From Antedon mediterranea (lineage: Eukaryota > Animalia > Echinodermata), in the NCBI RefSeq assembly GCF_964355755.1, contig NC_092673.1:17977648-18041647 (forward strand): DNA of 64,000 nucleotides. Direction: 5' to 3'. Positions 5,061-29,668 of this stretch are shown here, piece by piece (the first letter of the stretch is position 1; each line of letters starts with the position of its first letter). Below the pieces are notes generated by a model. That model was not told the DNA's origin, did no database searches, and saw only the letters and a list, made by a program, of their open reading frames with translations. A program made the position numbers and the translations under genes.

Positions 5061-5853
5061 CTACTTGTATAATTTTCCGTTTATGAACAGACTACCTTTG
5101 CGAAAGACCGGTTTATTTCCTTCCTTCCTTCCATGCCTTATGCATTACGTCACGGAGAGCTCTCTTCTTGGCTATATCAACAGCTGGTAAATCTTCCAGA
5201 ACAAACACATTCCCACCTTCCTTTGTTGTTGATTTTGCCTTTTTAAAAACAAGATGGCGCTCAGGTCGGTAAACAAACTTAGCGATGATGTGTCTGGGCT
5301 TATCATTCACAGACTTAGGATGTTTCCCTGTGCGATGTGCTAGTTCGATATTAATATCAGGTAGGTCCAGCTTATTTGTTATGTACTCTTTTAAGATGTC
5401 ATGCACATTTTCACCTTTACTTTCAGGAAGGCCTCCAAAACGCAGGTTAAAACTTCGGGAATAGCGTTCTAAGTTAATAATCTCCGTTTCTAGTCTCTCA
5501 ATAGTCGGTTTCATGTTAGTAGATATTTCAGTAGTCAAATGTAATACTTTGGTGGTAAGATCCATGTTTTTCTCTTCCAGTTCACTGATCAGTTTAGATG
5601 TATATGTAACCGATTTCTCCATATCTATTTGGCGAACTTCCATTGCTTCCACTCGTTCAATCAACTTATCCTGCTTATAAAGTAAGGTATCCAGCCGTCC
5701 ACTCAGTTTGTCAGTTAGCGTAACGATATCCTGTCTCAGAAGGTCAAGCCCTGTGCTAAGATCCAATTGTTGCTAAGGTATTTCAGCCTCGGTGGTAGGC
5801 CCAGGATTGTTTTTATTTTTACGAAGATTTGGGCGATTTGATGGTGTCGACAT
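5061..5853 (-). pseudogene. LINE ORF1 (coiled coil plus L1-ORF1-type RRM), disrupted
   Basis: LERYSRSFNLRFGGLPE...IELAHR...PRHIIAKF motif. ATG at 5853 is in frame but followed by TAG near 5775; a 4-bp GGAA duplication near 5120 shifts off the C-terminus KPVFRKGSLFINGKLYK*. Confidence 0.8.
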
Positions 5854-8390: not shown

Positions 8391-10320
8391 TCATCTCACA
8401 GTGTGTTGATTGACTTGGTACTGTAGACCATGCACTGTGGCTGCTGTGTACAATCTCACAGTGTGTTGATTGACTTGGTACTGTACACCATGCACTGTGG
8501 CTGCTGTGTACAATCTCACAGTGTGTTGATTGACTTGGTACTGTACACCATGCACTGTGGGTGCTGTGTACAATCTCACAGTGTGTTGATTGACTTGGTA
8601 CTGTAGACCATGCACTGTGGATGCTGTGTACAATCTCGCAGTGTGTTGATTGACTTGGTACTGTACACCATGCACTGTGGCTGCTGTGTACAATCTCACA
8701 GTGTGTTGATTGACTTGGTGCTGTACACCATGCACTGTGACTGCTGTGTACAATCTCACAGTGTGTTGATTGACTTGGTACTGTACACCATGCACTGTGG
8801 CTGCTGTGTACAATCTCACAGTGTGTTGATTGACTTAGTACTATACACCATGCACTGTGGCTGCTGTGTACAATCTCACAGTGTGTTGATTGACTTGGTA
8901 CTGTACACCATGCACTGTGGCTGCTGTGTACAATCTCACAGTGTGTTGATTGACTTGGTACTGTACACCATTCACTGTGGCTGCTGTGTACAATCTCACA
9001 GTGTGTTGATTGACTTGGTACTGTACACCATGCACTGTGGCTGCTGTGTACAATCTCACAGTGTGTTGATTGACTTGGTACTGTAGACCATGCACTGTGG
9101 CTGCTGTGTACAATCTCACAGTGTGTTGATTGACTTGGTACTGTAGACCATTCACTGTGGCTGCTGTGTACAATCTCACAGTGTGTTGATTGACTTGGTA
9201 CTGTACACCATGCACTGTGGCTGTACAATCTCACAGTGTGTTGATTGACTTGGTACTGTACACCATGCACTGTGGCTGTACAATCTCACAGTGTGTTGAT
9301 TGACTTGGTACTGTAGAACATGCACTGTGGCTGCTGTGTACAATCTCACAGTGTGTTGATTGACTTGGTACTGCTGTGTACAATCTCACAGTGTGTTGAT
9401 TGACTTGGTACTGTACACCATGCACTGTGGGTGCTGTGTACAATCTCACAGTGTGTTGATTGACTTGGTACTGTAGACCATGTACTGTGGATGCTGTTTA
9501 CAATCTCACAGTGTGTTGATTGACTTGGTACTGTACACCATGCACTGTGGCTGCTGTGTACAATCTCACAGTGTGTTGATTGACTTGGTGCTGTACACCA
9601 TGCACTGTGACTGCTGTGTACAATCTCACAGTGTGTTGATTGACTTGGTACTGTACACCATGCACTGTGGCTGCTGTGTACAATCTCACAGTGTGTTGAT
9701 TGACTTGGTACTATATACCATGCACTGTGGCTGCTGTGTACAATCTCACAGTGTGTTGATTGACTTGGTACTGTACACCATGCACTGTGGCTGCTGTGTA
9801 CAATCTCACAGTGTGTTAATTGACTTGGTACTGTACACCATGCACTGTGGCTGCTGTGTACAATCTCACAGTGTGTTGATTGACTTGGTACTGTACACCA
9901 TGCACTGTGGCTGCTGTGTACAATCTCACAGTGTGTTGATTGACTTGGTACTGTACACCATGCACTGTGGCTGCTGTGTACAATCTCACAGTGTCTTGAT
10001 TGACTTGGTACTGTACACCATGCACTGTGGCTGTACAATCTCACAGTGTCTTGATTGACTTGGGACTGTACACCATGCACTGTGGCTGCTGTGTACTACA
10101 ATCTAACAGTGTGTTGATTGACTTGGTACTGTACACCATGCACTGTGGCTGCTGTGTACAATCTCACAGTGTGTTGATTGACTTGGTACTGTACACCATG
10201 CACTGTGGCTGCTGTGTACAATCTCACAGTGTGTTGATTGACTTGGTACTGTACAACATGCACTGTGGCTGCTGTGTACAATCTAACAGTGTGTTGATTG
10301 ACTTGGTACTGTAGACCATG
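8391..10320. repeat. 60-bp tandem satellite, left block
   Basis: Unit GTGTGTTGATTGACTTGGTACTGTACACCATGCACTGTGGCTGCTGTGTACAATCTCACA, about 32 copies. Confidence 0.98.
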
Positions 10321-10518
10321 AGTAGTAGTAGTCCTACTTCAGACCCGACCTTGGTGTATTTCCTGATTACGTAATATCCGCCAGGTGTTTCTAATGTGAG
10401 GATACTGTTGTTGTTCCAGGCAGTGATATAGATGATCGTTACACGGATAGTCAGTCGTGGTTATAACAATGGTTAACAATAGGGATAGTATAAGACAATA
10501 GAGTATATCATTTCACTA

Positions 10519-11480
10519 GAATTGTTATATAGATTTGTTATATATTAATATACATTATAATATAAAATTAATAAATATTAAATAAAAATGATATGGTAAT
10601 TTAGTTGCTTGTGATGAGAACAAAATGGTTTACAATGGTTGAAGTCAATAGATGTTATGTTTCGGATTATAATACAATGGTTAACATAGGGTAAGGAAGT
10701 GAGACAATATAGTTTTTGTAAGATTTGAATTAGTCAGAGTCAATAAAGATGCACCTGGTTAATTAAAACTAGTTAATTGAGGTTTTTGCTTGATCTAAGC
10801 CGACATAATCCAAAGACATAAGTTTTTCGATCCGGATATTATAACAATGACTAAAACAAAAAGATAAGAATGAATGAAGTTAAATAATAAGTATGTCTTG
10901 ATTGAACTATACCGACAGGTAATTAACCATCTTCCGGATTTGTTAACAAAGGGGATAAATCGAAAGCAGTGACACGGGGGTGTTTGACATACTAAAGTTT
11001 AATGTGTGACGTCATGATGTTAGTTTCACTATTTTTGATGATTTTTGTTTTCCAATGTTTAGTTTTATTTTCATTTAAATTGGTTACGTTTACGAAAAGA
11101 TTTCTTTGTTTCCTTTTAAAATAAAACAAAAAGTGGGTAAAGAGGGAATTGTTATATAGAATTGTTATATATTAATATACATTATAATATAAAATTATTA
11201 AATAATAAATAAAAAATATTTGGTGATGATTTAGTCGTTTGTGATGAGAACAAATGGTATACAATGGTTGAAGTCAATAGGTGTTATGTTTCGGATATAA
11301 TATTACAATGGTTAACATTGGGTAAGGAAGTAAAAGATTGTTGTAAGATTTGAATTAGTCATGTACTTGGCGGTATTTTTAAAAAGGGGTACAATAAAAG
11401 ATGCTCCTGGTTTAATTAAAACAACGTAACAACATAAGTTATTTGATCAGGATATTATAACAATGACTAAAACAAAAAGT
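10519..11480 (+). repeat. Diverged ~340-bp direct repeat in the subterminal region (about 10519-10862 vs 11146-11478)
   Basis: Shared blocks GAATTGTTATATAGA...GTGATGAGAACAAA...GGATATTATAACAATGACTAAAACAAAA; mirrored in the right arm. Confidence 0.8.
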
Positions 11481-11976
11481 TAAGAGAATTTAGTACAGTT
11501 TTCATCAGTATGAACTTCTACAAACCAACAGCTGATTACGCCGATTCTAAAATAGCTGATAAGGCTAAGGCTAGTATGCAGCGAGTTATGAGAAAACGGT
11601 TTGATCTTTGATGATTTTGGATCGGACATTTTTTAAATTGAATGACATTGGGGAAGCTACTTAATGAAACAAAAGATACACGGCGCTTCGACACAATGTT
11701 CCGACAGGAAATACAACAATGACAATTGGCTGAAACAAATTTGGTAAATGCCGAATGTAATCCTTTGACTGTATATAACTCTCGAATATTTTGTAATATT
11801 TACCTCATTCTACAACGCTACAGAGCTCGACAAGACAGACAAAAAAAAAAACAACAACTAGTTACTATGGGTTCCGTGATTGAAATCAATGATCTTACTA
11901 TGGACTCTGATGTCGAAGAAGATGTTATATATATATAAGCAGTGATTCAGAATTTGAAGACGAAGACATACTAGCT

Positions 11977-12597
11977 ATGACTGGTGCCTATTTTACAGCA
12001 GAGGAGGAGGAAGAGATGAGGGAAGAGATGGGGGATATGACGTGTTTAATGGCGATTCAACCCCCACCTCCAATGAACGTTGATTTCAATAATGTATCTA
12101 ATACTGAAGAAGACGAACATTATATATCGAGAATAATTTCTGAAGAGGAGAGGATTGTATACGACGACACGTCATCGGTAGTTGACTACCACCTATTTCT
12201 GGCAAGAAAAGCCGATGTAGAAGATGAGGTAGAAGATGGGGTGTTTGCGGAAGAGTACCTGAACCCTGTGCTGGAGGCGGAGATTAAGAAAGAAACTACC
12301 GAACTTGAGTACAAAGAAATAATGAGAACAATTGAGAAGGTTTTCATAGAAGAATTTATATTCATTCTGAAGGACATGGTTGAACGTTATAACTTTCACG
12401 GCTCAAGATATGAACAACTCCTAACATTTTTTCGACCAATTCTGGCATTGAAACTTGTGGACAATAGCGCTACCCATTTTGAATGGGCGCTAAACTACTT
12501 TCATTTACGTTGTATAAATGTTGATGCGTTCGCTAAAGCCATAAAGTTGATTACAAATGATTCAGAACTTTTTAATAAGATTCTTTACCAATTGTAA
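11977..12597 (+). CDS. Maverick accessory ORF of unknown function, acidic N-terminus (206 aa; probably about 242 aa from ATG 11867 before a TA slippage)
   Basis: Open frame, more GC-rich than its flanks; the upstream frame joins it if 2 nt of the (TA)n run at 11926-11937 are removed. Confidence 0.6.
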   Translation: MTGAYFTAEEEEEMREEMGDMTCLMAIQPPPPMNVDFNNVSNTEEDEHYISRIISEEERIVYDDTSSVVDYHLFLARKADVEDEVEDGVFAEEYLNPVLEAEIKKETTELEYKEIMRTIEKVFIEEFIFILKDMVERYNFHGSRYEQLLTFFRPILALKLVDNSATHFEWALNYFHLRCINVDAFAKAIKLITNDSELFNKILYQL

Positions 12598-12850
12598 TTT
12601 GTACAAATTTAAAAAAATATCTTAACACTTTTTTAATTAATGTTACATATTTTTATAATTCTTATTTCTTTTCGGTAAATTTATTATTATTATGGTTGTA
12701 AATTATATTGAAATAGAATATGTGTTAAAATAAAGGTTGTGGTTTTTCTTTTAATAGCAACAACAACGAAAATGAATTTGATCTTTGCGTGTTATTTAAG
12801 TATTTTATTTATTTTTTAAATTTTCATTTTGGTGAATGAGGGTAATAAGT

Positions 12851-13090
12851 ATGGATGAGTACTTAAGAAAAGTATATTACGATCCTAAGCATCCTGATAG
12901 TTTTGGTGGTGTGGACCGACTTTATCAAAATGTAAAATACGATTTAAATATTACCAAGAGACAAGTTCAAGACTGACTGAGCAAGCTAGATACATATACA
13001 TTACACAAATCCATTCAACGTAAATTCAAACGAAACTGGGTGCTTGTAAGTGTTATTGATGAACAATGGGGAATGGATTTGGAAAAATAA
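12851..13090 (+). pseudogene. Maverick/Polinton retroviral-like integrase, N-terminal fragment
   Basis: Hand translation MDEYLRKVYYDPKHPDSFGGVDRLY...VQD*LSKLDTYTLHKSIQRKFKRNWVLVSVIDEQWGMDL fits the YYDP..P.SF.G...LY / YTLHKP.R..F.R / WQ.DL pattern; TGA at 12974; truncated just after the first catalytic Asp. Confidence 0.88.
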
Positions 13091-14600
13091 CGTGTATAAA
13101 ATTTGATTCAGACAAACTGTTTGACTTTAAATTTCCAAAAATCAAAGGAAGTCAATTTTGAAATAGTTGGTAGCATGGTACAAGGAATCGGACTGGAAAA
13201 AATAACAACAACTAATCCTAACAAAATAACCCGTAAACCAAAATCTCACTCTCTACCATTCAAAAATGATGTAGCGATTTTTTCAAGCGGTATTGTCATG
13301 AACGTATTGAAAAGAAAATAGTTTTATTGTCAATGATTTGTCAAGTGTTTTATTTTAATTTCAATTACTGTTGTATTGTATTTAGTTTTAACCGTTCATG
13401 TTGGCATGATCAATATTTGCTCAAACTCCATTTTATCGTTATGTTTGTAGTATTTTAGAGATTCCCGATCATCGTAATAATGATATAACTAGAATTCGTA
13501 ACCGTGTGTTAGATTCCACGCGTATTATATACATATTGTCTTACTTTAATTCCTTCTCTCGTTATTCACCCGATGTAGTTTGATCAAACAATTGTACCTG
13601 AGCCTGAAAGGTTAGTTGTTATGGTACAAGGAATCGGCCCGGAAAATAATTTGTTTTTCTTTTCTGTTAAATTATTATTATGTTTGTGAATTGTGTATTG
13701 CAATAGATTTGTTTAATGAAATTAAATTAATTAGGCCTATGTTTTGACTTAATTTACTGTCAGTGTAAATTTGTAAAAGTAGTTTTTCCTACTTTATTTC
13801 ACGGTAAATTTATTTATCGACTTAATTTAATTTGTTTTCTTTTCTGTTGTTGTTAAATGTAATTGCAGACACACATAATAAATGATTGTGATTATAAATA
13901 TTCTGTTTACTTCTTTTAATTTTAAACAGTACAATAGATCTGTAATGTAAAGTTATATTTTATATATAATAAGTAATATTACAAAAATAAACATACAAAA
14001 TGTATAAAGCATAGATTAATTAAATTTAAATACAATTTCTTTATTTCAACATGAATTTCATTTTCTACGTGTTTTCAATTTTAAATCTTTTAAGAAAGAC
14101 ACAATACGTACTGCTAAAAAAAATAAAACGCACACAAAAGAAAACAAATTTGAGACGCACGATATGTAACGACGGTTTCAATAAAAAGGCATATTATAAA
14201 TGTATTTTTACCAAATTTATAAAGTAAAGGGTTATTATTGAGAAATATACATTTTAGATAAATGATAACAGATCTAAAATTAATTAGAGATATCAATACA
14301 ATATGGTGTTCATAATAATTTGTTTTGATGACTAGATGAAACATCTGAAGACATTCAACAAAAAACAAGCGTTAACACCATACCAGTCACTAAGAATGCT
14401 ACTACTCTGAAAAAAACATCTCCCTTCCAGCACAGAAACAAATTCTGAACGAAAATAAAAAAATAAAAATAATTAGTAAACGAAACACGCGCATTATAAA
14501 TAAAATGAATAATTTAAGAATATTTGTTAAAATACCCACGAACAAAAAAAAAAAAGAAAAAGAAACATACTAACCGATTTATCGTCATTACGAAGTTCAA

Positions 14601-15404
14601 ACAAGGCCAACAGCCATTAAGTCGCGTGCTACAATGCATAGTGATACCGGACCGACAGACAAACAGACTGACAGACAGACAGACCGACAGACAGACGGAC
14701 CGACCGACATAGTGAACTATACTGACCGAAATTACTGAACATGTTTAAAAATGTTGAAATGTTTAAAAACATTTATATTGTTTTAATTTACACGTGCGTA
14801 GCCTGTCACATTTGACGTGCTCGTATAACGTAATTTCGAGTTGAAAATTAAGTCAAGAAAACAGAAATCGGGCAAAAAGTGTGCGCAATAACATTTAACG
14901 CGCAGTGCGCGCGCAAAAATCTGCGCACTCATGGCAATTTTGTAAACGCTTAAAATTGCCTGAAACGTACTCTTATTTCATCGAAAATAAATTTTGAAAA
15001 TTTTAAGCGCGCGTACGCATGCGTTACATGCGCTACGCACGTAATTGTATTGCCATATGATGATTTATGCCCTGAAATTTATGAGTACCAAATTTTATTT
15101 AATTGTGATTCATGGTTGTTAAGATATGATTACAAACGTGATTTCGTTAAATCGTGCGTAGACCGCGTAATTTTTTATTGCGCACCGTGAAAACATAACC
15201 ACATCGATTCCTGGCCATAAGGAATATTCTGTGAAAAATTGACTTAGCTAGATTAAACTGATATCAAGATAAGGTCATAAAGCGACAAAACGCATAGTGA
15301 TACCGGACCGACAGACAGACAGACCGACAGACAGACCGACAGACAGACAGACAGACAGACCGACCGACCGACTTAGTGAACTATAGAGTCGCTTCCACGC
15401 GACT
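14601..15404 (-). mobile_element. Helentron-associated non-autonomous element (HINE/DINE-1-like), left arm only
   Basis: 804-bp insertion absent from the right arm; inserted in an A/T run; subterminal inverted repeats AGTCGCGTG/CACGCGACT, terminal hairpin AGTCGC-TTCCAC-GCGACT, (GACA/GACC)n microsatellites. Confidence 0.75.
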
Positions 15405-15736
15405 AAAAACGAAAACTTTTCCTTGAAAAATCCACAAGAGACACGTTTTACATTTTCTAACTGCATTTCAGTGTCACATTGTTTCGCAACACATGTACAT
15501 ACAACGAGTCCTGTCACAAATCTGCCGACATTTATTTTTGTATCGCTCATCATTTGTTCTAATACATAATACAGCGCTTCCGAAGAAATATCTTTACACA
15601 ATTCTAACACATTAAAATTGTTTTCCAACTCTTTACAAGCACGAATAGTACTCTGGAGGATGGGTGAATCCAAAACAATTAACCCCGTCAATTTATATTC
15701 AATGTATGCTAAAACTACTTCCTCTAAATCAACCAT
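15275..15736 (-). pseudogene. Bcl-2-like ORF, left-arm copy disrupted by the HINE
   Basis: Matches the right-arm copy up to FFKEKFSF (one A/S change), then reads into HINE microsatellite (SVGLSVCL). Confidence 0.65.
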
Positions 15737-17401
15737 AACGCTCGACAAAACAAATGATAATGGATGTAATTACCAAGAAAGTTACAACTTAAAACATTTA
15801 TTTTTTGTTTTTAAAAAGAAGTTGTAACATAGAAACTAATTTTGTCAGGAAATGTGTTTTTATTATTTATGTGATTTATTTGTGTTTAGAAAGTTACAAC
15901 ATTAAGATTTAATTTTGTCAAAAAAAATGTGAACATACGGAGCCGAATGTAATTTTTAATCCTTAGTATAGTGAAGAGATTTTATAAAAAAAAAATAAAG
16001 AGCGAACGGAAACTAATGATTTTAGATTAGCCATATAGAAATTAAATGTTGTCAAGATAGTTGTCAAAAATAAATAAAATATATTATACTGAATTTACTT
16101 TGTACATTTATTTAATTTAGGCCGTAATTAGGGTTGTTGTTCATTTATGATTGTGAAAAATATACATACGAATAAAACAGCTATATATATATATAAAAAA
16201 AAAAATAATGATTCAGTGTTATAATTTTATTTACCTGTCATTATGTTAAATAAAACATATTCTAAATTAAATTTATATCATGTTAGATATATTTTCTAAT
16301 TACGTTTTTTCAATATAAATGTATTATTATGTTGTCGATAGTTGTGTAAAAAACGTAATTACAAACTCTACTATGACACGCATGTAAACACAAACAGTAT
16401 TTACTTCTCTAACTAAGTTTGATATTCGCCATAACACTATGTCATATCATCAAACGACTTGTTTTATTTTTTTTAAGTAATTATTTTCTAAAAGATTGTT
16501 AACAAATACCGAATTACCGGAGGAAGTCTGTCCGCTAATCACCGCGGTGAAAGGTGTTACTAAACGCCCAGTCATTGTCATTATACTGCGTTCTTAACTT
16601 GAATTTTCATATAAGTAGTTGAAAACAAAAATTTTAAAAATGTAACAAGATTCATGAAACAATTATTTTTTTTTTTATGTAACAAACTTAATGACAAAAT
16701 AAATTTTATGCAAAAAGATTCTTGACAAATTATTTTTATGTAACAAATTTAATGATAAAATAAAATTTATGTAAAAAGATTCTTGATAAATTATTTTTTA
16801 TTTAACGAATTTCATGACCATTTTGTTTTCTTATGTAACAAGTTTTTGATTCTGAAATTAATCGACATACTTATAAAGAATAAATCTATAATCACAATTA
16901 AATTTATAAACAAATAATGATATTTAATATTAGTATAATTATTTCCATACAAAAAGTATAAATAAATTCAAATATTTACACACAAAAATATTGCATAAAT
17001 GATATTTACAAAATAATTACAAAGGTTAAAAATAAATTCTCTTATTTACAAGAATATTACACAAATAATTCTTAAAAACTTAAACGAACTAGGCCTACTG
17101 AACAAATGGACTGAATGACAAAATATTTTTTTCAACAAAATAATTCTTTATGTTATATACGGTTGATAAAATCAATTGATGCAACTAATTCTTAGCAAAA
17201 TAATTTTCTGTTACAAATTTCTTGTAAAAAATAAATTTATGTAACGAATTTCTTTACAAATTAATTTTTATGTAACAAATATTTTGAAAAATTTATTTTC
17301 ATGTAACAAATTTATCTACAAAAATATTTTTATGAAACAAACTTCTTAACAAATTTATCTTATGTAACAAATTTCTTTACAAATTTATTTTTATGTAACA
17401 A

Positions 17402-17720
17402 ATGTTGTTGAAAATATTGTGTTTCAAAGGTTACAACAATAAATTTGAACATAAATGTAAATTCAGTTGTGAGCTATGTTGCTCCAATGATTGCACTCCT
17501 TCATTGGAATCAGTAACTATCATTTCATGTAATGAATGTAATCGTTCTTTTAAAAATCAAAAATGTTTTAACAATCACAAATCTTCAAAAAATGGTACAA
17601 AAAACGGTTTGTGATATTAAAAAAATCTGTAAGGAGTGCAATCGTTTCATTAAGAAGGATCATAAATGCAATGAATATACGTGTAAAGTATGTAATCTAA
17701 AAGTTTCATTGCATTTATGA
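17402..17720 (+). pseudogene. Fragment of the Cys-rich N-terminal region of Maverick protein-primed DNA polymerase B
   Basis: CFKGYNNKFEHKC..SCELC...C...CNECNRSFKNQKCFNNHK, a frameshift in the A-run near 17600, then VCDIKKICKECNRFIKKDHKCNEYTCKVC; spacing resembles the region preceding the exonuclease domain of animal Maverick pPolB. Confidence 0.7.
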
Positions 17721-19147
17721 TCCTTCTTAATGAAACGATTGCACTCCTTACAGATTTTTTTAATATCACAAACCGTTTGTGAAAATTTTTTTGCTAAGAA
17801 TTAGTTGCATCAATTGATTTTATCAACCGTATGTAACATAAAGAATTATTTTGTTGAAAAAAAACATTTTGTCATTCAGTCCATTTGTTCAGTAGGCCTA
17901 GTTCGTTTAAGTTTTTAAGAATTATTTGTGTAATATTCTTGTAAATAAGAGAATTTATTTTTAACCTTTGTAATTATTTTGTAAATATCATTTATGCAAT
18001 ATTTTTGTGTGTAAATATTTGAATTTATTTATACTTTTTGTATGGAAATAATTATACTAATATTAAATATCATTATTTGTTTATAAATTTAATTGTGATT
18101 ATAGATTTATTCTTTATAAGTATGTCGATTAATTTCAGAATCAAAAACTTGTTACATAAGAAAAAAAAATGGTCATGAAATTCGTTAAATAAAAAATAAT
18201 TTATCAAGAATCTTTTTACATAAATTTTATTTTATCATTAAATTTGTTACATAAAAATAATTTGTCAAGAATCTTTTTGCATAAAATTTATTTTGTCATT
18301 AAGTTTGTTACATAAAAAAAAAAAATAATTGTTTCATGAATCTTGTTACATTTTTTAAATTTTTGTTTTCAACTACTTATATGAAAATTCAAGTTAAGAA
18401 CGCAGTATAATGACAATGACTGGGCGTTTAGTAACACCTTTCACCGCGGTGATTAGCGGACAGACTTCCTCCGGTAACTCGGTATTTGTTAACAATCTTT
18501 TAGAAAATAATTACTTTAAACAAATAAAACAAGTCGTTTGATGATATGACATAGTGTTATGGCGAATATCAAACTTAGTTAGAGAAGTAAATACTGTTTG
18601 TGTTTACATGCGTGTCATAGTAGAGTTTGTAATTACGTTTTTTACACAACTATCGACAACATAATAATACATTTATATTGAAAAAACGTAATTAGAAAAT
18701 ATATCTAACATGATATAAATTTAATTTAGAATATGTTTTATTTAACATAATGACAGGTAAATAAAATTATAACACTGAATCATTATTTTTTTTTTATATA
18801 TATATATAGCTGTTTTATTCGTATGTATATTTTTCACAATCATAAATGAACAACAACCCTAATTACGGCCTAAATTAAATAAATGTACAAAGTAAATTCA
18901 GTATAATATATTTTATTTATTTTTGACAACTATCTTGACAACATTTAATTTCTATATGGCTAATCTAAAATCATTAGTTTCCGTTCGCTCTTTTTTTTTT
19001 TTTATAAAATCTCTTCACTATACTCAGGATTAAAAATTACATTCGGCTCCGTATGTTCACATTTTTTTTGACAAAATTAAATCTTAATGTTGTAACTTTC
19101 TAAACACAAATAAATCACATAAATAGAATAGTGGAAATTCACTCAAA

Positions 19148-22100
19148 ATGGAATCGTTGAAATTTAAGCCGCCTCCACCCTTCGATTTTGATGGTCCTAG
19201 TGTGTCTGCTGCTTGGAAAAGGTGGAAACAGAGATTTACATTCTTTCTGAAAGCGACTGGCAGTGCACGTAAAAGTGGTGAAATAAAGGTAGCAATTTTA
19301 ATTACTACACTGGAAGGGCGTGGCTTAGATATTTACAACAACTTTACGTTCACTGATCTTGTAGGCGAACCGGGTCAGGAAGATTATGTCCCAGCAGAGG
19401 ACAATAATGATTTTGATACAGTAATGTCAAAGTATGATGAATACTGTAATAAACGGGACCCGATAATGGCGTTACGAGCGCAATATTGGCAATATGAACG
19501 ACCCGAAGGTCAGGGTTTGGATGAGTTTGTGAATGACTTAAGAACAATGGCGGTGAATTGTAAATTTGTGGATCAAGACGGTACGATTCGTGATAAGCTT
19601 TTCTTCAGTGTAACAAATCCAGTGATGAAAATGAAAGTTATGGGCGATGATGGCAACGCTACACTTGATACTGTGATACACCGAATGAGAATTTTTGAGA
19701 GTTCTAGACGCGAGCTTGAAATGGCCGGTGTTGCAAGTGATTATAAGCCGAAGGTTCATGCATTAAGAAGAACCAAATCACATAAACAGACGCCAAGGGT
19801 TAGTGGTCAACAGAATCATCAGTTTACGGATGCAGCCAAAACTAAATGTAGCAGGTGCGGTTCTTCACATCTACCTCGTCAGTGTCCAGCTTATGGTAAA
19901 ACATGCTACGGGTGTAAGGGTTTGAATCATTTTCAGTCTGTGTGCACCAAACGTTTTTCCCGAGGACGCGGTCGTGAACGTGGAAGAGCTGTACATACAA
20001 TGGATGAACAGTATATTATTGCCGAAGGTGTAAGTGATCCTAATGACTTATACATTGACACTTTAACTGTTAAAGATAAAAATGAGTACTTTTATATTGA
20101 CACTCTAAGAGATAACGATGACAAGAACGCTTGGTTCTATGATGTGTTTGTGGGAGGTAATGTGTTAAAGATGAAGCTTGACACAGGAGCAGGTGTTAAC
20201 TGCATACCACTGGAAACATTTAGAAAGTTACCAGGACATAAGAACATTAAAGTATATCATTCTAAAACTAACCTATATAGTTATGGTGATGAAATTGTAA
20301 AACATATTGGTAAAGTTACTCTAAATGTAAAAGTTGATAACATCCAAAATGATTATGACTTCTTTATTACTAATGTTGATGGTCCACCTATACTTGGATT
20401 GAAAGCCTGTAGGGAGCTTGGTCTGATCAAACGTGGTAACAATATGATGTGTAGTGATAATGTGATAAATAATAAATATGTACATGCACTAACTAAAGAT
20501 TCTTTGATTCGAGAGAATCGTGATGTATTTACAGGTTTAGGTAAATATCAAGATCCTTATGACATCAAGTTGAAAAGTGGTGTTTCTCCAGTAGTCCATC
20601 CACCCCGCAGGGTGCCACTTAGTCTGCATACCAAGCTGAAAGAAAAACTTGACGATATGGAGAAGAGGGGCGTGATTAAACGGACCGACAAACCAACAGA
20701 TTGGGTCAACAGCCTAGTGATAGTGGAGAAACGAGACGGATCCTTGAGGTTGTGCTTGGATCCACGTGATTTGAACAAAGCCATTAGACGTGAACATCAT
20801 ATGATACCGACCGGTAAGGACGTAGTGAGTCAGCTGTCAGGTAAAACACTTTTCACTGTCTTTGACCAGAAAGATGCGTACTGGCAAGTTCCTCTTACTG
20901 ACGCTAGCGCAGATATATGTACATTCAATACTCCTTTTGGACGATACAGTTTTCTAAGAATGCCATTTGGTATCTGCAGTGCTAGTGAGGTGCTACAGAA
21001 ACGAAACCAGCAAATATTTGGTCATATACCTAACGTACACATAATATCTGATGATATGATTATAGCTACAGGTAGTGAAGCAGAGCATAATGCAACAGTA
21101 CAGAGGGTGATGGATACGGCCAGAGCGAACAATGCCAAATTCAATGGAAGCAAGCTTAAGTATAAACAGTCTGAATTGGTGTTCATGGGAAACGTGGTGA
21201 GTGCCGATGGACAGAAACCAGACGAAGAAAAGGTTAGAGTTATCAAAGAAATGCCTGACCCACAATGTAAATCTGACTTGCAACGTATAATGGGGATGCT
21301 TAATTATCTTTCACAATTCATACCTAATATGTCCAATGTGAGTGCACCTCTCCGGGAATTGCTCAAGAAAGATGTTGCATGGTTTTGGGGTCCAGAACAA
21401 GCAGAATCCCTGAGGCAATTAAAGGCGTTGATTAGTAGCAAACCAGTCTTAAGTTTCTTTGATCCACAGAAGCCAACCATTATCCAATGTGATGCATCAT
21501 CCACAGGGCTCGGAAGCTGTTTGCTTCAAGAGGGTCATCCGGTTGCGTTTGCCTCTAGGTCGTTAACATCAGCTGAAGTTAATTACTCACAAATTGAGAA
21601 GGAGATGTTGGCGATCTGCTTTTCTATACACAAATACCACCAATATGTATATGGCCGAGCTGTTGAAGTTCACACTGACCATAAACCACTCGAAACAATC
21701 ACACGTAAACCACTCCATAAAGCTAGTCCTAGAATACAACAAATGCTGCTCAAATTGATAAAGTATGAGCTTGATGTTAAGTATGTTCCTGGAAAGTACA
21801 TGTACATAGCTGATGCTCTCAGCAGAGCATATCCTGATAAGGTTGATCGTGATGCCCAACCCCTTGAACAGTTGAAATATAGGGTGCATAGTCTAGACGA
21901 AATATTGCCCATGAGTAAAGCAAAAATTGAAGAAGCAATACGAGCTACACAGGCAGATGTGGTACTCCAAACTCTAATTCTAACATGCAAAAGCGGGTGG
22001 CCTAAACATAGATGGGGTGCACCGGAGCAAGTTAGGCAGTATTGGCATCTTCGTGATGAGATACATGAAATTGATGGTCTTGTGTTTTTAGGTGAGAAGT

Positions 22101-23143
22101 TGATTGTTCCTAGCCAAATGAGAGCAGATATGCTGAATAAAATTCATGAAAGTCACCTTGGGATGGAGAAGTGTAAGGCGAGGGCCAGGTCTATTTTGTA
22201 TTGGCCAGGTATGACCAACGATATAGAATCAGTAGTGTCAAGGTGCCCTGTTTGTGTAAAGTTCATGCGTAGAAATCAACGGGAGCCGATGATTCCACAT
22301 AAGGTTCCTATGAGACCATGGGCTAAGCTGGGCGCGGATATATATACATTCGCTGGCAGAGATCATCTTATTGTAGTTGACTATTTTTCCAAATACCCGG
22401 AAGTAGTGACACTCACTAGCAAAACGGCTGGAGAAATCATCAAAAAATTGAAATCTATATTCTCAAGACATGGCATCCCTGAAATATTAATGACTGATAA
22501 CATGCCGTTCGCCAGCTACGAGTTCAAACGGTTTGCTAACCAGTGGGGGTTCGATTTAGTGACGTCCAGTCCGACATATGCCAGAAGTAATGGGCAAGTT
22601 GAACGTTTCGTCCAAACCATTAAGCAACTCATGAGGAAGTCCGTTGATGAGGGAAGCGATTTTCATCTTGCTCTACTAGACTATCGTGATTCACCAATTG
22701 CAGGGTTGAATTGTTCTCCTGCTCAGTTGTTGATGAGCAGAAAGTTAAGGTCAACACTTCCAGTCACACATACATTGCTGCAACCACAAGTTATTGTCGG
22801 AGCTAGAGATTTCCTTCAGTCACGTCAACAGTCTATGACAAAATATTATGATCGTGGTACACGTGTATTGACGAAACTAAGAAAAGGGGACAACGTGAGA
22901 ATATTGAAAGGACGGCAATGGGAACCTGCTGTTGTGGCTAAGGAACATGAGCTACCCCGTTCATATGTAGTGATGACCGAAGATGGAACGTCGTACAGAC
23001 GGAATCGACAACATTTATTAAACACTCAACAACCGGATACTTTGCAGAAGGGCGTACCAACTTTGCAGAAGGTACCGGAAGCACCACCCTTACGTAGAAG
23101 TGATCGTGTTAGTCGTCCACCGGATCGATTGGATTATAAATAA
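19148..23143 (+). CDS. Gypsy Gag-Pol polyprotein, 1331 aa, open
   Basis: Two zinc knuckles (CSRCGSSH..QC, CYGCKGLNHFQSVC), protease LDTGA, RT (LCLDPRDLN, RMPFG, ISDD), RNase H (CDASSTG, YSQIEKE, TDHKPL), integrase (H..H...CPVC, ADIY, TDN, SNGQVER), in PR-RT-RH-IN order. Confidence 0.96.
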   Translation: MESLKFKPPPPFDFDGPSVSAAWKRWKQRFTFFLKATGSARKSGEIKVAILITTLEGRGLDIYNNFTFTDLVGEPGQEDYVPAEDNNDFDTVMSKYDEYCNKRDPIMALRAQYWQYERPEGQGLDEFVNDLRTMAVNCKFVDQDGTIRDKLFFSVTNPVMKMKVMGDDGNATLDTVIHRMRIFESSRRELEMAGVASDYKPKVHALRRTKSHKQTPRVSGQQNHQFTDAAKTKCSRCGSSHLPRQCPAYGKTCYGCKGLNHFQSVCTKRFSRGRGRERGRAVHTMDEQYIIAEGVSDPNDLYIDTLTVKDKNEYFYIDTLRDNDDKNAWFYDVFVGGNVLKMKLDTGAGVNCIPLETFRKLPGHKNIKVYHSKTNLYSYGDEIVKHIGKVTLNVKVDNIQNDYDFFITNVDGPPILGLKACRELGLIKRGNNMMCSDNVINNKYVHALTKDSLIRENRDVFTGLGKYQDPYDIKLKSGVSPVVHPPRRVPLSLHTKLKEKLDDMEKRGVIKRTDKPTDWVNSLVIVEKRDGSLRLCLDPRDLNKAIRREHHMIPTGKDVVSQLSGKTLFTVFDQKDAYWQVPLTDASADICTFNTPFGRYSFLRMPFGICSASEVLQKRNQQIFGHIPNVHIISDDMIIATGSEAEHNATVQRVMDTARANNAKFNGSKLKYKQSELVFMGNVVSADGQKPDEEKVRVIKEMPDPQCKSDLQRIMGMLNYLSQFIPNMSNVSAPLRELLKKDVAWFWGPEQAESLRQLKALISSKPVLSFFDPQKPTIIQCDASSTGLGSCLLQEGHPVAFASRSLTSAEVNYSQIEKEMLAICFSIHKYHQYVYGRAVEVHTDHKPLETITRKPLHKASPRIQQMLLKLIKYELDVKYVPGKYMYIADALSRAYPDKVDRDAQPLEQLKYRVHSLDEILPMSKAKIEEAIRATQADVVLQTLILTCKSGWPKHRWGAPEQVRQYWHLRDEIHEIDGLVFLGEKLIVPSQMRADMLNKIHESHLGMEKCKARARSILYWPGMTNDIESVVSRCPVCVKFMRRNQREPMIPHKVPMRPWAKLGADIYTFAGRDHLIVVDYFSKYPEVVTLTSKTAGEIIKKLKSIFSRHGIPEILMTDNMPFASYEFKRFANQWGFDLVTSSPTYARSNGQVERFVQTIKQLMRKSVDEGSDFHLALLDYRDSPIAGLNCSPAQLLMSRKLRSTLPVTHTLLQPQVIVGARDFLQSRQQSMTKYYDRGTRVLTKLRKGDNVRILKGRQWEPAVVAKEHELPRSYVVMTEDGTSYRRNRQHLLNTQQPDTLQKGVPTLQKVPEAPPLRRSDRVSRPPDRLDYK

Positions 23144-23218
23144 ATGTATCAATAATTAACTTCATTTTATGTTTATTTTGCAGATATCATGTTTATTTTC
23201 AAACCATCCTATAATGTA

Positions 23219-23346
23219 TGAAACATATGAATGTGATCTAAGAAACAATTTGAAACATATGAATGTGGTCTAAGAAACAATTTGAAACATATGAATGTGA
23301 TCTAAGAAACAATTTGAAACATATGAATGTGATCTAAGAAACAATT
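23219..23346 (+). repeat. Four 32-bp tandem repeats in the Gypsy 3' UTR
   Basis: TGAAACATATGAATGTGATCTAAGAAACAATT x4. Confidence 0.95.
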
Positions 23347-23477
23347 TATGTTTAAGGAAAAGTAATATTATTTATTTATGAGAATGTGATATATCGTGTC
23401 TAATTTACTTTTGATATTAATTTTTTTTAAAAATAAAAATTAAACTTTAGAAATTTATTTTGTTAGAAAAGGAAAGA

Positions 23478-23613
23478 TGTCACATATGCTCTGTTAATAT
23501 GCTAATTATATTTGTTTGTTATTTGCAAATTATGCAAACTACGTTACGCTCGGTGAAGTAATAAAACAGTAGTTGAATTAAAAGAACCGTGTTGACGAGT
23601 CACACTTGTAATA
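23478..23613 (+). repeat. Short Gypsy 3' LTR (~136 bp)
   Basis: Starts TG right after the polypurine tract; AATAAA at 23560; ends TGTAATA (non-canonical) where Maverick arm sequence resumes. Confidence 0.7.
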
Positions 23614-23743
23614 TAATAAAAACACATTTCCTGACAAAATTAGTTTCTATGTTACAACTTCTTTTTAAAAACAAAAAAATAAATGTTTTAAGTTGTAACT
23701 TTCTTGGTAATTACATCCATTATCGTTTGTTTTGTCGAGCGTT

Positions 23744-24274
23744 ATGGTTGATTTAGAGGAAGTAGTTTTAGCATACATTGAATATAAATTGACGGGGTTA
23801 ATTGTTTTGGATTCACCCATCCTCCAGAGTACTATTCGTGCTTGTAAAGAGTTGGAAAACAATTTTAATGTGTTAGAATTGTGTAAAGATATTTCTTCGG
23901 AAGCGCTGTATTATGTATTAGAACAAATGATGAGCGATACAAAAATAAATGTCGGCAGATTTGTGACAGGACTCGTTGTATGTACATGTGTTTCGAAACA
24001 ATGTGACACTGAAATGCAGTTAGAAAATGTAAAACGTGTCTCTTGTGGATTTTTCAAGGAAAAGTTTTCGTTTTTTGAACTTCGTAATGACGATAAATCG
24101 GTTAGTATGTTTCTTTTTCTTTCTTTTTTTTTGTTCGTGGGTATTTTAACAAATATTCTTAAATTATTCATTTTATTTATAATGCGCGTGTTTCGTTTAC
24201 TAATTATTTTTATTTTTTTATTTTCGTTCAGAATTTGTTTCTGTGTAGGAAGGGAGATGTTTTTTTCAGAGTAG
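23744..24274 (+). CDS. Bcl-2-like protein carried by the Maverick derivative (uninterrupted copy)
   Basis: BH4-like LEEVVLAYIEYKL, BH3-like LQSTIRACKELE, BH1-like MMSDTKINVGRFVTGL (cf. NWGR) and a hydrophobic C-terminal tail; BH2 poorly recognisable; first ATG is 23744 (the ORF-track start is TTG). Confidence 0.7.
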   Translation: MVDLEEVVLAYIEYKLTGLIVLDSPILQSTIRACKELENNFNVLELCKDISSEALYYVLEQMMSDTKINVGRFVTGLVVCTCVSKQCDTEMQLENVKRVSCGFFKEKFSFFELRNDDKSVSMFLFLSFFLFVGILTNILKLFILFIMRVFRLLIIFIFLFSFRICFCVGREMFFSE

Positions 24275-25585
24275 TAGCATTCTTAGTGACTGGTATGGTG
24301 TTAACGCTTGTTTTTTGTTGAATGTCTTCAGATGTTTCATCTAGTCATCAAAACAAATTATTATGAACACCATATTGTATTGATATCTCTAATTAATTTT
24401 AGATCTGTTATCATTTATCTAAAATGTATATTTCTCAATAATAACCCTTTACTTTATAAATTTGGTAAAAATACATTTATAATATGCCTTTTTATTGAAA
24501 CCGTCGTTACATATCGTGCGTCTCAAATTTGTTTTCTTTTGTGTGCGTTTTATTTTTTTTAGCAGTACGTATTGTGTCTTTCTTAAAAGATTTAAAATTG
24601 AAAACACGTAGAAAATGAAATTCATGTTGAAATAAAGAAATTGTATTTAAATTTAATTAATCTATGCTTTATACATTTTGTATGTTTATTTTTGTAATAT
24701 TACTTATTATATATAAAATATAACTTTACATTACAGATCTATTGTACTGTTTAAAATTAAAAGAAGTAAACAGAATATTTATAATCACAATCATTTATTA
24801 TGTGTGTCTGCAATTACATTTAACAACAACAGAAAAGAAAACAAATTAAATTAAGTCGATAAATAAATTTACCGTGAATTAAAGTAGGAAAAACTACTTT
24901 TACAAATTTACACTGACAGTAAATTAAGTCAAAACATAGGCCTAATTAATTTAATTTCATTAAACAAATCTATTGCAATACACAATTCACAAACATAATA
25001 ATAATTTAACAGAAAAGAAAAACAAATTATTTTCCGGGCCGATTCCTTGTACCATAACAACTAACCTTTCAGGCTCAGGTACAATTGTTTGATCAAACTA
25101 CATCGGGTGAATAACGAGAGAAGGAATTAAAGTAAGACAATATGTATATAATACGCGTGGAATCTAACACACGGTTACGAATTCTAGTTATATCATTATT
25201 ACGATGATCGGGAATCTCTAAAATACTACAAACATAACGATAAAATGGAGTTTGAGCAAATATTGATCATGCCAACATGAACGGTTAAAACTAAATACAA
25301 TACAACAGTAATTGAAATTAAAATAAAACACTTGACAAATCATTGACAATAAAACTATTTTCTTTTCAATACGTTCATGACAATACCGCTTGAAAAAATC
25401 GCTACATCATTTTTGAATGGTAGAGAGTGAGATTTTGGTTTACGGGTTATTTTTTTAGGATTAGTTGTTGTTATTTTTTCCAGTCCGATTCCTTGTACCA
25501 TGCTACCAACTATTTCAAAATTGACTTCCTTTGATTTTTGGAAATTTAAAGTCAAACAGTTTGTCTGAATCAAATTTTATACACG

Positions 25586-25825
25586 TTATTTTTCCAAATC
25601 CATTCCCCATTGTTCATCAATAACACTTACAAGCACCCAGTTTCGTTTGAATTTACGTTGAATGGATTTGTGTAATGTATATGTATCTAGCTTGCTCAGT
25701 CAGTCTTGAACTTGTCTCTTGGTAATATTTAAATCGTATTTTACATTTTGATAAAGTCGGTCCACACCACCAAAACTATCAGGATGCTTAGGATCGTAAT
25801 ATACTTTTCTTAAGTACTCATCCAT
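25586..25825 (-). pseudogene. Maverick integrase N-terminal fragment, right-arm copy
   Basis: Reverse complement of 12851-13090 with the same internal TGA. Confidence 0.88.
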
Positions 25826-26078
25826 ACTTATTACCCTCATTCACCAAAATGAAAATTTAAAAAATAAATAAAATACTTAAATAACACGCAAAGATCAAAT
25901 TCATTTTCGTTGTTGTTGCTATTAAAAGAAAAACCACAACCTTTATTTTAACACATATTCTATTTCAATATAATTTACAACCATAATAATAATAAATTTA
26001 CCGAAAAGAAATAAGAATTATAAAAATATGTAACATTAATTAAAAAAGTGTTAAGATATTTTTTTAAATTTGTACAAA

Positions 26079-26699
26079 TTACAATTGGTAAAGAATCTTA
26101 TTAAAAAGTTCTGAATCATTTGTAATCAACTTTATGGCTTTAGCGAACGCATCAACATTTATACAACGTAAATGAAAGTAGTTTAGCGCCCATTCAAAAT
26201 GGGTAGCGCTATTGTCCACAAGTTTCAATGCCAGAATTGGTCGAAAAAATGTTAGGAGTTGTTCATATCTTGAGCCGTGAAAGTTATAACGTTCAACCAT
26301 GTCCTTCAGAATGAATATAAATTCTTCTATGAAAACCTTCTCAATTGTTCTCATTATTTCTTTGTACTCAAGTTCGGTAGTTTCTTTCTTAATCTCCGCC
26401 TCCAGCACAGGGTTCAGGTACTCTTCCGCAAACACCCCATCTTCTACCTCATCTTCTACATCGGCTTTTCTTGCCAGAAATAGGTGGTAGTCAACTACCG
26501 ATGACGTGTCGTCGTATACAATCCTCTCCTCTTCAGAAATTATTCTCGATATATAATGTTCGTCTTCTTCAGTATTAGATACATTATTGAAATCAACGTT
26601 CATTGGAGGTGGGGGTTGAATCGCCATTAAACACGTCATATCCCCCATCTCTTCCCTCATCTCTTCCTCCTCCTCTGCTGTAAAATAGGCACCAGTCAT
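26079..26699 (-). CDS. Maverick accessory acidic ORF, right-arm copy
   Basis: Protein identical to that of 11977-12597. Confidence 0.6.
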   Translation of the reverse strand: MTGAYFTAEEEEEMREEMGDMTCLMAIQPPPPMNVDFNNVSNTEEDEHYISRIISEEERIVYDDTSSVVDYHLFLARKADVEDEVEDGVFAEEYLNPVLEAEIKKETTELEYKEIMRTIEKVFIEEFIFILKDMVERYNFHGSRYEQLLTFFRPILALKLVDNSATHFEWALNYFHLRCINVDAFAKAIKLITNDSELFNKILYQL

Positions 26700-28355
26700 A
26701 GCTAGTATGTCTTCGTCTTCAAATTCTGAATCACTGCTTATATATATATAACATCTTCTTCGACATCAGAGTCCATAGTAAGATCATTGATTTCAATCAC
26801 GGAACCCATAGTAACTAGTTGTTGTTTTTTTTTTTGTCTGTCTTGTCGAGCTCTGTAGCGTTGTAGAATGAGGTAAATATTACAAAATATTCGAGAGTTA
26901 TATACAGTCAAAGGATTACATTCGGCATTTACCAAATTTGTTTCAGCCAATTGTCATTGTTGTATTTCCTGTCGGAACATTGTGTCGAAGCGCCGTGTAT
27001 CTTTTGTTTCATTAAGTAGCTTCCCCAATGTCATTCAATTTAAAAAATGTCCGATCCAAAATCATCAAAGATCAAACCGTTTTCTCATAACTCGCTGCAT
27101 ACTAGCCTTAGCCTTATCAGCTATTTTAGAATCGGCGTAATCAGCTGTTGGTTTGTAGAAGTTCATACTGATGAAAACTGTACTAAATTCTCTTAACTTT
27201 TTGTTTTAGTCATTGTTATAATATCCTGATCAAATAACTTATGTTGTTACGTTGTTTTAATTAAACCAGGAGCATCTTTTATTGTACCCCTTTTTAAAAA
27301 TACCGCCAAGTACATGACTAATTCAAATCTTACAACAATCTTTTACTTCCTTACCCAATGTTAACCATTGTAATATTATATCCGAAACATAACACCTATT
27401 GACTTCAACCATTGTATACCATTTGTTCTCATCACAAACGACTAAATCATCACCAAATATTTTTTATTTATTATTTAATAATTTTATATTATAATGTATA
27501 TTAATATATAACAATTCTATATAACAATTCCCTCTTTACCCACTTTTTGTTTTATTTTAAAAGGAAACAAAGAAATCTTTTCGTAAACGTAACCAATTTA
27601 AATGAAAATAAAACTAAACATTGGAAAACAAAAATCATCAAAAATAGTGAAACTAACATCATGACGTCACACATTAAACTTTAGTATGTCAAACACCCAC
27701 GTGTCACTGCTTTCGATTTATCCCCTTTGTTAACAAATCCGGAAGATGGTTAATTACCTGTCGGTATAGTTCAATCAAGACATACTTATTATTTAACTTC
27801 ATTCATTCTTATCTTTTTGTTTTAGTCATTGTTATAATATCCGGATCGAAAAACTTATGTCTTTGGATTATGTCGGCTTAGATCAAGCAAAAACCTCAAT
27901 TAACTAGTTTTAATTAACCAGGTGCATCTTTATTGACTCTGACTAATTCAAATCTTACAAAAACTATATTGTCTCACTTCCTTACCCTATGTTAACCATT
28001 GTATTATAATCCGAAACATAACATCTATTGACTTCAACCATTGTAAACCATTTTGTTCTCATCACAAGCAACTAAATTACCATATCATTTTTATTTAATA
28101 TTTATTAATTTTATATTATAATGTATATTAATATATAACAAATCTATATAACAATTCTAGTGAAATGATATACTCTATTGTCTTATACTATCCCTATTGT
28201 TAACCATTGTTATAACCACGACTGACTATCCGTGTAACGATCATCTATATCACTGCCTGGAACAACAACAGTATCCTCACATTAGAAACACCTGGCGGAT
28301 ATTACGTAATCAGGAAATACACCAAGGTCGGGTGTGAAGTAGGACTACTACTACT

Positions 28356-29668
28356 ACCATGCACTGTGGCTGCTGTGTACAATCTCACAGTGTGTTGATT
28401 GACTTGGTACTGTACACCATGCACTGTGGCTGCTGTGTACAATCTCACAGTGTGTTGATTGACTTGGTACTGTAGACCATGCACTGTGGCTGCTGTGTAC
28501 AATCTCAAAAGCCCCTTTCTCACAGAGTTGTGTGCCAGGAATATTGCGGGAATATACCATTACCATGCCGGTATGGTTTTCTGTGAGAACGGGTCGTCTT
28601 GACATCATGCCGGCACCATGCCGGCATCGACATGACCTGCTTTAGACCTAGTAATATTCTAGGGATATTCCCCGCAATGCCAGAAGGGCATTCTGTGAGA
28701 ACGTATCGCCGTTATATTCCGGGGTTCCCCGTCGAGGCTTTGACACCTTGCGCGGTCAAGTGTATCACTTTGGCGCCTATTCAATTCAATTAACAATAAT
28801 AATGTCGAACTGGAGGGATAATGAGATAAGAGAGCTGCTTAAAATAAGGGGACAAGAAGAAATTTGTAGTATAATCTATAGGCCGCTAGGCTAGGCCATT
28901 AGCTCTTTGTTTGTAATGTTGGTGCCATGACCTTTCGTCGCCTTGTAAATTGTAGGCCTACAGCCTTCTAAGGTGTTTTACAGATTGCCGATGACGGCAA
29001 ATTAATTGCTATACCTGTATAATATATGCACAATATACTGTACATAGCATGTATTGCATAAATATGCTATAAAGGAAGATAATAATCTGTAACTTAACAT
29101 TCGCCGCCATATCATCGCTAGACAAAAATAATAACAATAAAGGACGCCCTCAATAATTATTTTGTCAGAGACTTTTTATTGGCCGAATATGCCCGACTCC
29201 TTTCTCACAGAAAGCCGGCATATACCGGTTATATTTCCGGCACGATAGTCCGATGAGAATGGGTATATGCCGGTAACGATACCGGCACGACGCCAGCACT
29301 GTACCGGTATATTGCAGGCACATCTGTGAGAAAGGGGCTCTAGTGTGTTGATTGACTTGGTACTGTACACCATGCACTGTGACTGCTGTGTACAATCTCA
29401 CAGTGTGTTGATTGACTTGGTGCTGTACACCATGCACTGTGACTGCTGTGTACAATCTCACAGTGTGTTGATTGACTTGGTACTGCACACCATGCACTGT
29501 GGCTGCTGTGTACAATCTCACAGTGTGTTGATTGACTTGGTACTGTAGACCATGCACTGTGGCTGCTGTGTACAATCTCACAGTGTGTTGATTGACTTGG
29601 TACTGTACACCATGCACTGTGACTGCTGTGTACAATCTCAGAGTGTGTTGATTGACTTGGTACTGTAC
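28356..29668. repeat. 60-bp satellite, right block (interrupted by a MITE)
   Basis: Same unit, orientation and phase as 8391-10320. Confidence 0.95.
28510..29339. mobile_element. MITE with Harbinger-like TIRs inserted in the satellite
   Basis: TIRs AGCCCCTTTCTCACAG / CTGTGAGAAAGGGGCT; internal TGTGAGAA repeats; TSD not clean, so the superfamily is uncertain. Confidence 0.65.

Follow-up and report, generated by a model that had tools for sequence, protein, structure and literature searches.

Results

Organization of the locus

The window considered here, a stretch of 64,000 nucleotides of Antedon mediterranea DNA, contains at positions 23744-24274 (+) an intronless open reading frame (ORF) that begins with an ATG and runs for 176 codons, just as a sequence-only reading of this DNA had described it. 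Its first 120 codons (23744-24103, +) make up a Bcl-2-like core with predicted helices 1-6, the residues NVGR at codons 69-72 and a coding-like base pattern, and they are followed by a T-rich tract and a 55-codon hydrophobic tail (24107-24274, +).

The ORF lies in the right arm of a giant palindrome of about 18 kb (10321-28355), a whole Maverick-derived element that is inserted inside a 60-bp tandem array. Mavericks are recognized by (AGT)2//(ACT)2 ends and a 6-bp target-site duplication (PMC8097293), and the element carries both the Maverick/Polinton end motif, as (AGT)n//(ACT)n, and the flanking 6-bp duplication (10315-10320, + and 28356-28361, +). The palindrome centre (17602-17778) consists of a 74-bp perfect stem and a 29-nt loop (17676-17704), and beside this hairpin lies a segment of 393 bp present in the left arm only (17209-17601), which makes the centre asymmetric, in a way that could stabilise a long palindrome. 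The arms are 99.6% identical (24 differences in 6095 aligned columns, 0.39%) and share the same order of parts, which begins at the outer end with a 206-codon ORF and continues inward through an integrase 5' remnant, a PolB C-terminal piece, the Bcl-2-like gene, a packaging ATPase piece in the opposite direction and a PolB zinc-finger region, inside which the DNA folds back. When the native left arm was block-shuffled 500 times, no shuffle gave an ORF of at least 176 codons, and 20 shuffles gave one of at least 120 codons.

Additional features of the arms were observed. Their inner part (15864-17208 against 17781-19125) is more diverged than the outer part (13/1347 against 11/4748; Fisher p 6e-4, or p 0.008 for substitutions only), an excess that could result from arm-to-arm correction starting at the ends or from faster change in a centre with 22% G+C. 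Each arm also holds a sub-terminal direct duplication of 350 bp with 77% identity (10519-10869 and 11146-11485 in the left arm, with mirror counterparts in the right), and AT-rich degenerate tandem repeats of 31/61 bp (16670-16820, 17130-17420 and 18140-18320) lie between the ATPase and PolB remnants, possibly marking a promoter or origin region.

Different insertions have disturbed the two arms. The right arm alone carries a Gypsy-type retrotransposon (19126-23612, +) with an open 1331-codon gag-pol ORF (19148-23143) and a 3' end that looks like an LTR and is preceded by a purine tract; no second LTR was found within the window and its target duplication is not clear. Only about 130 bp lie between the Gypsy 3' end and the Bcl-2-like start, and the insertion separates the right copy from the rest of its upstream DNA. 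In the left arm, the gene is represented by a 5' piece covering codons 1 to about 110 (15405-15736, -, with the start at 15736) and by a 3' piece that reaches a stop after a short hydrophobic run (14527-14604, -), and between them an 800-bp insertion with (GACA)n tracts (14605-15404), presumably Helentron/HINE-like from its resemblance to such elements, splits the copy near codon 110. Because the Bcl-2-like gene is mirrored in both arms, it belongs to the element and neither to the Gypsy nor to the flank, and the different insertions lead to the same conclusion regarding the Gypsy, since the left copy is without it. Outside the element, at 1918-4866 and 5113-5643 (-), the window holds an ordinary open LINE-type ORF2 (endonuclease and reverse transcriptase, 982 codons) with an L1-like ORF1 upstream.

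Remnants of Maverick core genes

An rve integrase, a protein-primed PolB and a packaging ATPase of Maverick type are all present as remnants, and the element is not an intact Maverick, since all three recognisable core genes are fragments. The integrase and polymerase had been described as decayed, which they are, and the packaging ATPase has likewise survived only as a fragment. The integrase 5' remnant (12851-13090, +; mirror 25586-25825, -) is 79% identical to an rve protein (P0002), contains an internal stop and is cut before the catalytic core. A short PolB C-terminal-like piece (13100-13240, +) abuts it and matches a DNA_pol_B_2 ORF at 7476-7601 of Maverick locus L005 (E 7e-4). The N-terminal remnant of the packaging ATPase (16453-16593, -; mirror 18398-18538, +) matches Adeno_IVa2 with E 0.024, and the N-terminal zinc-finger remnant of PolB (17399-17717, +), which is in two frames and cut by the fold-back point, corresponds to L005 4744-5063. 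Among the 63 Maverick loci fetched with the integrase, the ATPase piece matches 25 and the PolB pieces match 9 (zinc-finger remnant), 2 and 3 (C-terminal-like piece); L005 carries DNA_pol_B_2, Pox_A32 and rve, and another locus, L002, carries Pox_A32. A tblastx comparison of the left arm with the 63 loci returned integrase and PolB pieces only, and no trace of a capsid or protease was detected by this comparison or among 81 native fragments searched against Pfam (0 matches). Two of the loci contain small ORFs similar to adenovirus protein X (PF05829; L013 3692-3994, E 2e-4, and L017 2977-3300, E 1e-5) beside the A32 ATPase, as in adintoviruses.

The acidic 206-codon ORF (11977-12597, +; mirror 26079-26699, -) is identical in both arms and gave no family or relative in any search. 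It may represent only the 3' portion of a longer acidic gene (11868-12597, +; mirror 26079-26808, -): in both arms alike, a frame upstream is closed at a (TA)n run near 11930, and the frame of the ORF itself is free of stops from 11911 onward.

Probable kinship of the ORF with Bcl-2 proteins

PF00452, the family proposed as a check by the sequence-only reading, ranked first with each of three readings of the gene, namely the whole ORF (E 6e-4, 20.8 bits), the left-arm 5' piece (E 1e-4, 23.2 bits) and the core (E 3.2e-4, 21.6 bits), with scores that remain under the curated cut-off of 31.4 bits, and the ORF is best filed on these profiles as Bcl-2-like and not as a formal PF00452 member. By comparison, Bcl-2 matches were absent from 149 background ORFs of the integrase-related loci (0/138 at E <= 0.001, these being what was left of 165 after removal of near-duplicates and of those already scanned, and 0/11 at E <= 0.01), as well as from the 81 native arm fragments searched against Pfam.

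The BH segments that had been read into the ORF fared unequally. BH1, a motif of the NWGR type whose Gly-Arg opens helix 5, is present as NVGR: N69-V70-G71-R72 aligns with the NWGR of fowlpox FPV039, the better of two PDB sequence matches (E 0.076 for the whole ORF and 0.031 for its core); Asn, Gly and Arg are unchanged and Val stands in place of Trp. At the BH3 position, the ORF shares A-C-K with FPV039, but it lacks the Gly-Asp pair of a canonical BH3. Helix 1 looks BH4-like by eye, but the Pfam BH4 profile gave no match to the ORF. No match covers BH2, the PF00452 alignment spanning only model positions 15-79 of 100. BH2 is dispensable in some viral members, as the putative Bcl-2 of tiger frog virus, ORF145R, is described as having only BH1 and a membrane segment (PMC11209288). 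Moreover, the Arg of the NWGR motif forms a salt bridge with the BH3 Asp and the Asn hydrogen-bonds ligands (PMC5691656), and both of these residues are kept in NVGR; changes in the motif can nevertheless abolish BH3 binding, mouse Boo having an altered motif and binding nothing (PMC5691656).

In the ESM Atlas, seven of the eight rows displayed belonged to Bcl-2, E1B-19K, poxviral Bcl-2-like, Pox_B6 or M11L families (scores 0.85-0.89), six of those being Bcl-2-type by name, and nine of the ten best family matches had a family or clan in common; with scores below 0.9 and a recognition of 1857, this result was rated as a lead only. Homologue searches gave nothing usable, so no alignment could be built and the two AlphaFold models were therefore single-sequence ones, with pLDDT 38-45 over the core and a helix spacing that fits helices 1-6 at low confidence. 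When the low-confidence core model was compared with the PDB by Foldseek, Bcl-xL occupied four of eight rows, all with E > 4 (best E 4.4), and fold searches with the same model in BFVD and VIA-align returned nothing clear. Given the low confidence of the core models, the three fold searches are uninformative and a missing fold match is no evidence. Overall, Pfam, PDB sequences, the Atlas and Foldseek all put Bcl-2 proteins first, and these four readings, which depend partly on each other and of which none is strong singly, suggest the Bcl-2 clan. The ORF is thus very probably a divergent Bcl-2 homologue.

Close relatives were not encountered. Two homologue searches with the Bcl-2-like protein produced 135 candidates, none at E <= 0.01, and 3 candidates, none at E <= 10; PHROGs gave no match, and related loci were absent from metagenome and viral contigs and from the 63 integrase-related loci. 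The sole match among 1.84 billion representatives, a repeat protein of 2100 amino acids that we take from its pattern to be sushi-like, was rejected, having matched through cysteine spacing. As none of the collections searched yielded a close relative, whether cellular or viral, the ORF does not appear to be a recent capture of a host paralogue, and as far as its sequence indicates, the gene is an old or fast-evolving lineage.

The T-rich tract and the state of the two copies

The T-rich tract (24110-24132) differs in length by one base between the arms. In the left arm, the sequence past the insertion, taken as it stands, reaches a stop 25 codons beyond the insertion edge, after a short hydrophobic run, whereas the frame of the right arm continues to codon 176; the shorter left-arm version with a simple tail-like end that had been anticipated is therefore what the DNA contains. 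A hydrophobic run after the core, also anticipated, exists in both arms, with tail lengths that are very different between them, but the long right-arm tail looks non-coding in composition. Its codons 122-176 have a first-position G+C of 0.24 and a purine content of 0.42, against 0.43 and 0.62 in codons 1-120 and 0.50 and 0.67 in the 206-codon ORF; the tail is 55% T, and 33 of its 55 residues are F, L or I. The last 55 codons of the right copy are therefore likely to be a read-through beyond the T-tract into non-coding DNA. The claim that the gene is open while the other genes are decayed holds for the right arm only, the left copy being split, and both copies in the window are probably dead, the right one probably out of frame at the T-tract.

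Related copies in sequencing runs

The right arm was partly present in 18 of 20 listed runs from 8 studies, and at least half of its words were present in 5; one of the runs may be the source sample. Four runs from four studies (organism labels A, B and C) cover 29-30 of the 30 bins of the right arm. A contig of one run, X9 (organism label C), spans 24955-25768 and bridges the integrase cut near 25586, which shows the same integrase truncation in another sample. The element is a member of a family and not a one-off. More divergent copies, about 85-89% identical, were found over part of the Bcl-2-like gene in another run, X6. The T-tract stretch was passed over as a repeat when the runs were compared with the right arm, and none of the runs listed is recorded as RNA, X5 being RNA only by guess. 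Contig depths of run X6 on 23620-28355 range from thousands to tens of thousands (1449 records), compared with depths of 5-160 in run X9; high copy number or free replicating forms are both possible sources of such depth, between which contig depth cannot discriminate.

The coding differences visible in these comparisons, drawn from the 40 of 214 substitutions that were listed, amount to five core substitutions and one arm difference. They comprise 1 synonymous and 5 non-synonymous changes, close to the neutral expectation of 1.2 and 4.8. Three of the five core substitutions are common to all four runs against the window, so the visible substitutions mostly record drift of the window copy, and the dN/dS check suggested by the sequence-only reading gave a neutral-like outcome without power, because only six differences are visible and most are private to the window copy. 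Regarding indels (12 of 74 listed), the 891 coding bases in the long pieces of run X9 are free of them, whereas at least 10-11 events fall in the roughly 2040 non-coding bases (p about 0.02 by length). For the Bcl-2 part alone this deficit gives p 0.25-0.29, and it is confounded by homopolymer runs (1 against 10). Within the Bcl-2-like gene, the long pieces of run X5 (codons 30-119) and of run X9 (codons 1-90) are without indels. Between X9 and the window, 13 of 394 letters differ around the gene and 7 of 814 in a mostly non-coding piece. In 2000 simulations, a neutral frame of 120 codons stayed open in 82% at 0.39% divergence and in 34% at five times that divergence; the open frame of the window copy follows from its being young and short.

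Discussion

We consider it fairly probable that the locus records a viral-type Bcl-2 accessory gene which came from a parent Maverick, was carried in both arms of a helper-dependent fold-back element and served to delay apoptosis, the copy in the window being dead. A parent Maverick with such a gene would have lost its machinery through deletions, and, in the course of end-primed strand-displacement copying, a switch at PolB to its own nascent strand as template would have produced two copies of one end. The resulting palindrome would retain, at either end, the cis signals for being copied and integrated, with its cargo doubled, and would need the enzymes of a helper to spread. By homology, helices 1-6 would form a Bcl-2 core whose groove on helices 2-5 binds host BH3 motifs, the Asn, Gly and Arg of BH1 gripping the Asp of the BH3 ligand, and a short hydrophobic tail would anchor the protein to membranes, so that apoptosis might be delayed while the helper replicates. 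After insertion, the window copy would have drifted neutrally, with the left gene split and the right one probably thrown out of frame at the T-tract.

The same element may, in addition, keep the gene because it benefits from it, the doubled gene of the fold-back satellite keeping helper-copying cells alive and carriers out-replicating losers, which we regard as possible but far from established. Each recognisable core gene is cut or absent, and both arms have a Bcl-2-like core that is whole from the start codon on; the covered codons of the long X5 and X9 pieces, the divergent copies in X6 that extend over part of the gene and the weak indel deficit in coding DNA are consistent with retention under selection. 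These observations have to be set against the shortness of the gene compared with the long core genes, since deletions would spare a short gene more often, against visible differences that look neutral (1/6 synonymous), against the higher density of differences around the gene in X9 and against the probable damage of both window copies. The anti-apoptotic cargo retained by the defective element, as the sequence-only reading had it, stands as far as a Bcl-2-like gene native to the Maverick derivative is concerned, while its retention by selection is in doubt, as the differences fit neutrality and the arms are only 0.39% diverged.

A functional 176-codon protein whose long hydrophobic tail makes two passes, with damage confined to the left arm, is rather unlikely. 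The frame is open to codon 176, shuffled tail DNA being free of stops over 55 codons in 186 of 5000 trials (one frame), and hydropathy is near +2 across codons 121-170; however, 55 residues are far longer than a tail anchor, the T-rich codons have a non-coding-like composition by position, and in the other arm the same DNA falls in a different frame, where a short hydrophobic run leads into a stop.

A Bcl-2-fold protein with a non-apoptotic role, as an antagonist of signalling or autophagy like those of the poxviral Bcl-2-like families, is improbable. The unmatched BH2, the missing BH1 Trp and canonical BH3, and the Atlas rows with Poxv_Bcl-2-like and Pox_B6 clusters would suit such a role; on the other side stand the Asn, Gly and Arg of BH1, aligned with FPV039, a BH3-domain binder, the hydrophobic run after the core in both arms, and the putative iridovirus Bcl-2 with only BH1 and a membrane segment (PMC11209288). 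A likeness to Bcl-2 arising by chance in an orphan helical ORF is very improbable: scores below the Pfam cut-off, fold matches without significance and a search of 1.84 billion representatives that found only one unrelated repeat protein would agree with it, but Pfam, PDB sequences, the Atlas and Foldseek all rank Bcl-2 first and none of the 149 control ORFs matches. Finally, although fold-back reads are generally able to yield near-perfect giant palindromes, and although the right copy lies closely behind the Gypsy LTR-like end and a planarian Gypsy-like element with a BCL-2 domain has been described (PMC6431247), an assembly artefact, a gene of the Gypsy or a recent host capture is hardly credible, because the arms carry different insertions, 24 differences, an asymmetric centre with its 393-bp left-only segment and a matching 6-bp duplication at the outer ends, the left Bcl-2-like copy has no adjoining Gypsy, and no host-like Bcl-2 was found by sequence search.

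If the gene is indeed the anti-apoptotic cargo of a helper-dependent fold-back element, the finding touches on what Mavericks are. They are suspected to be viruses, although no particles have been observed, and the high copy numbers of their defective members are unexplained, according to the available text of PMC8097293. A helper-dependent snap-back genome that integrates, has spread over several samples and carries host-control cargo would be the expected product of a viral life cycle. More speculatively, fold-back Maverick satellites might be heritable defective-interfering viral genomes that have shed their machinery and have kept and doubled an anti-death Bcl-2 for the helper's host cell, perhaps a germ cell, in which case the present element would be an intermediate stage with the fragments of its parent and the PolB pivot still visible. 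Since these fragments and the pivot are still readable, the family permits a direct test of selected against hitch-hiking anti-death cargo.

Comparison with known systems

A Bcl-2 gene in a Maverick is not new, because Bcl2 and IAP homologues of adintoviruses have been published (Starrett et al., 2021, PMC8502044), with 'Bcl2' labelling three places in the text of Supplementary Fig. S2 of that article as available; regarding Bcl-2 in Mavericks, the present locus makes the modest contribution of one very divergent example to a published observation. Like the adintoviruses or animal Polintons described there, the element combines a compact Bcl-2-like accessory gene with an rve integrase, an FtsK-like ATPase and a PolB in a Maverick/Polinton, a likeness by description and not by sequence, but adintoviruses appear as whole elements in the published maps, whereas here a gene-stripped palindrome carries two copies. 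With avipoxvirus FPV039/CNP058 and other viral Bcl-2 proteins (PMC5691656, PMC11209288), the ORF shares N-x-G-R at the start of helix 5, A-C-K at the BH3 position and a compact core; it departs from FPV039 in the Val that replaces Trp in BH1 and in the unmatched BH2, and its sequence identity is marginal (E 0.03-0.08).

Most vertebrate copies of Mavericks are reported to be defective (PMC8097293, PMC6431247), and the element resembles Mavericks and their defective copies in its (AGT)2//(ACT)2 ends, its 6-bp duplication and its length of about 18 kb with insertions. It is unlike them in that its inverted repeat extends over the entire element, at about 7 kb per arm, with the fold-back inside PolB, and in that a capsid or protease remnant went undetected. 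Palindromic, foldback or non-autonomous Polintons were not found in the literature by title or the start of the abstract, in a search that had most subscription journals and Repbase outside its range, and the string 'palindrom' has no occurrence in the available text of PMC8097293 and PMC11131425.

The snapback genomes of AAV (PMC8235507) are similar in that one end is copied back into a palindrome, that they depend on a helper and that they may tune helper gene expression. They belong to another class of virus with another mode of replication, and in the account available they are packaged in particles and carry no anti-death cargo, unlike the present element, which is a germ-line insertion with target duplications. 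Beyond its Bcl-2 gene, the more unusual feature of this element is the complete fold-back palindrome that carries it.
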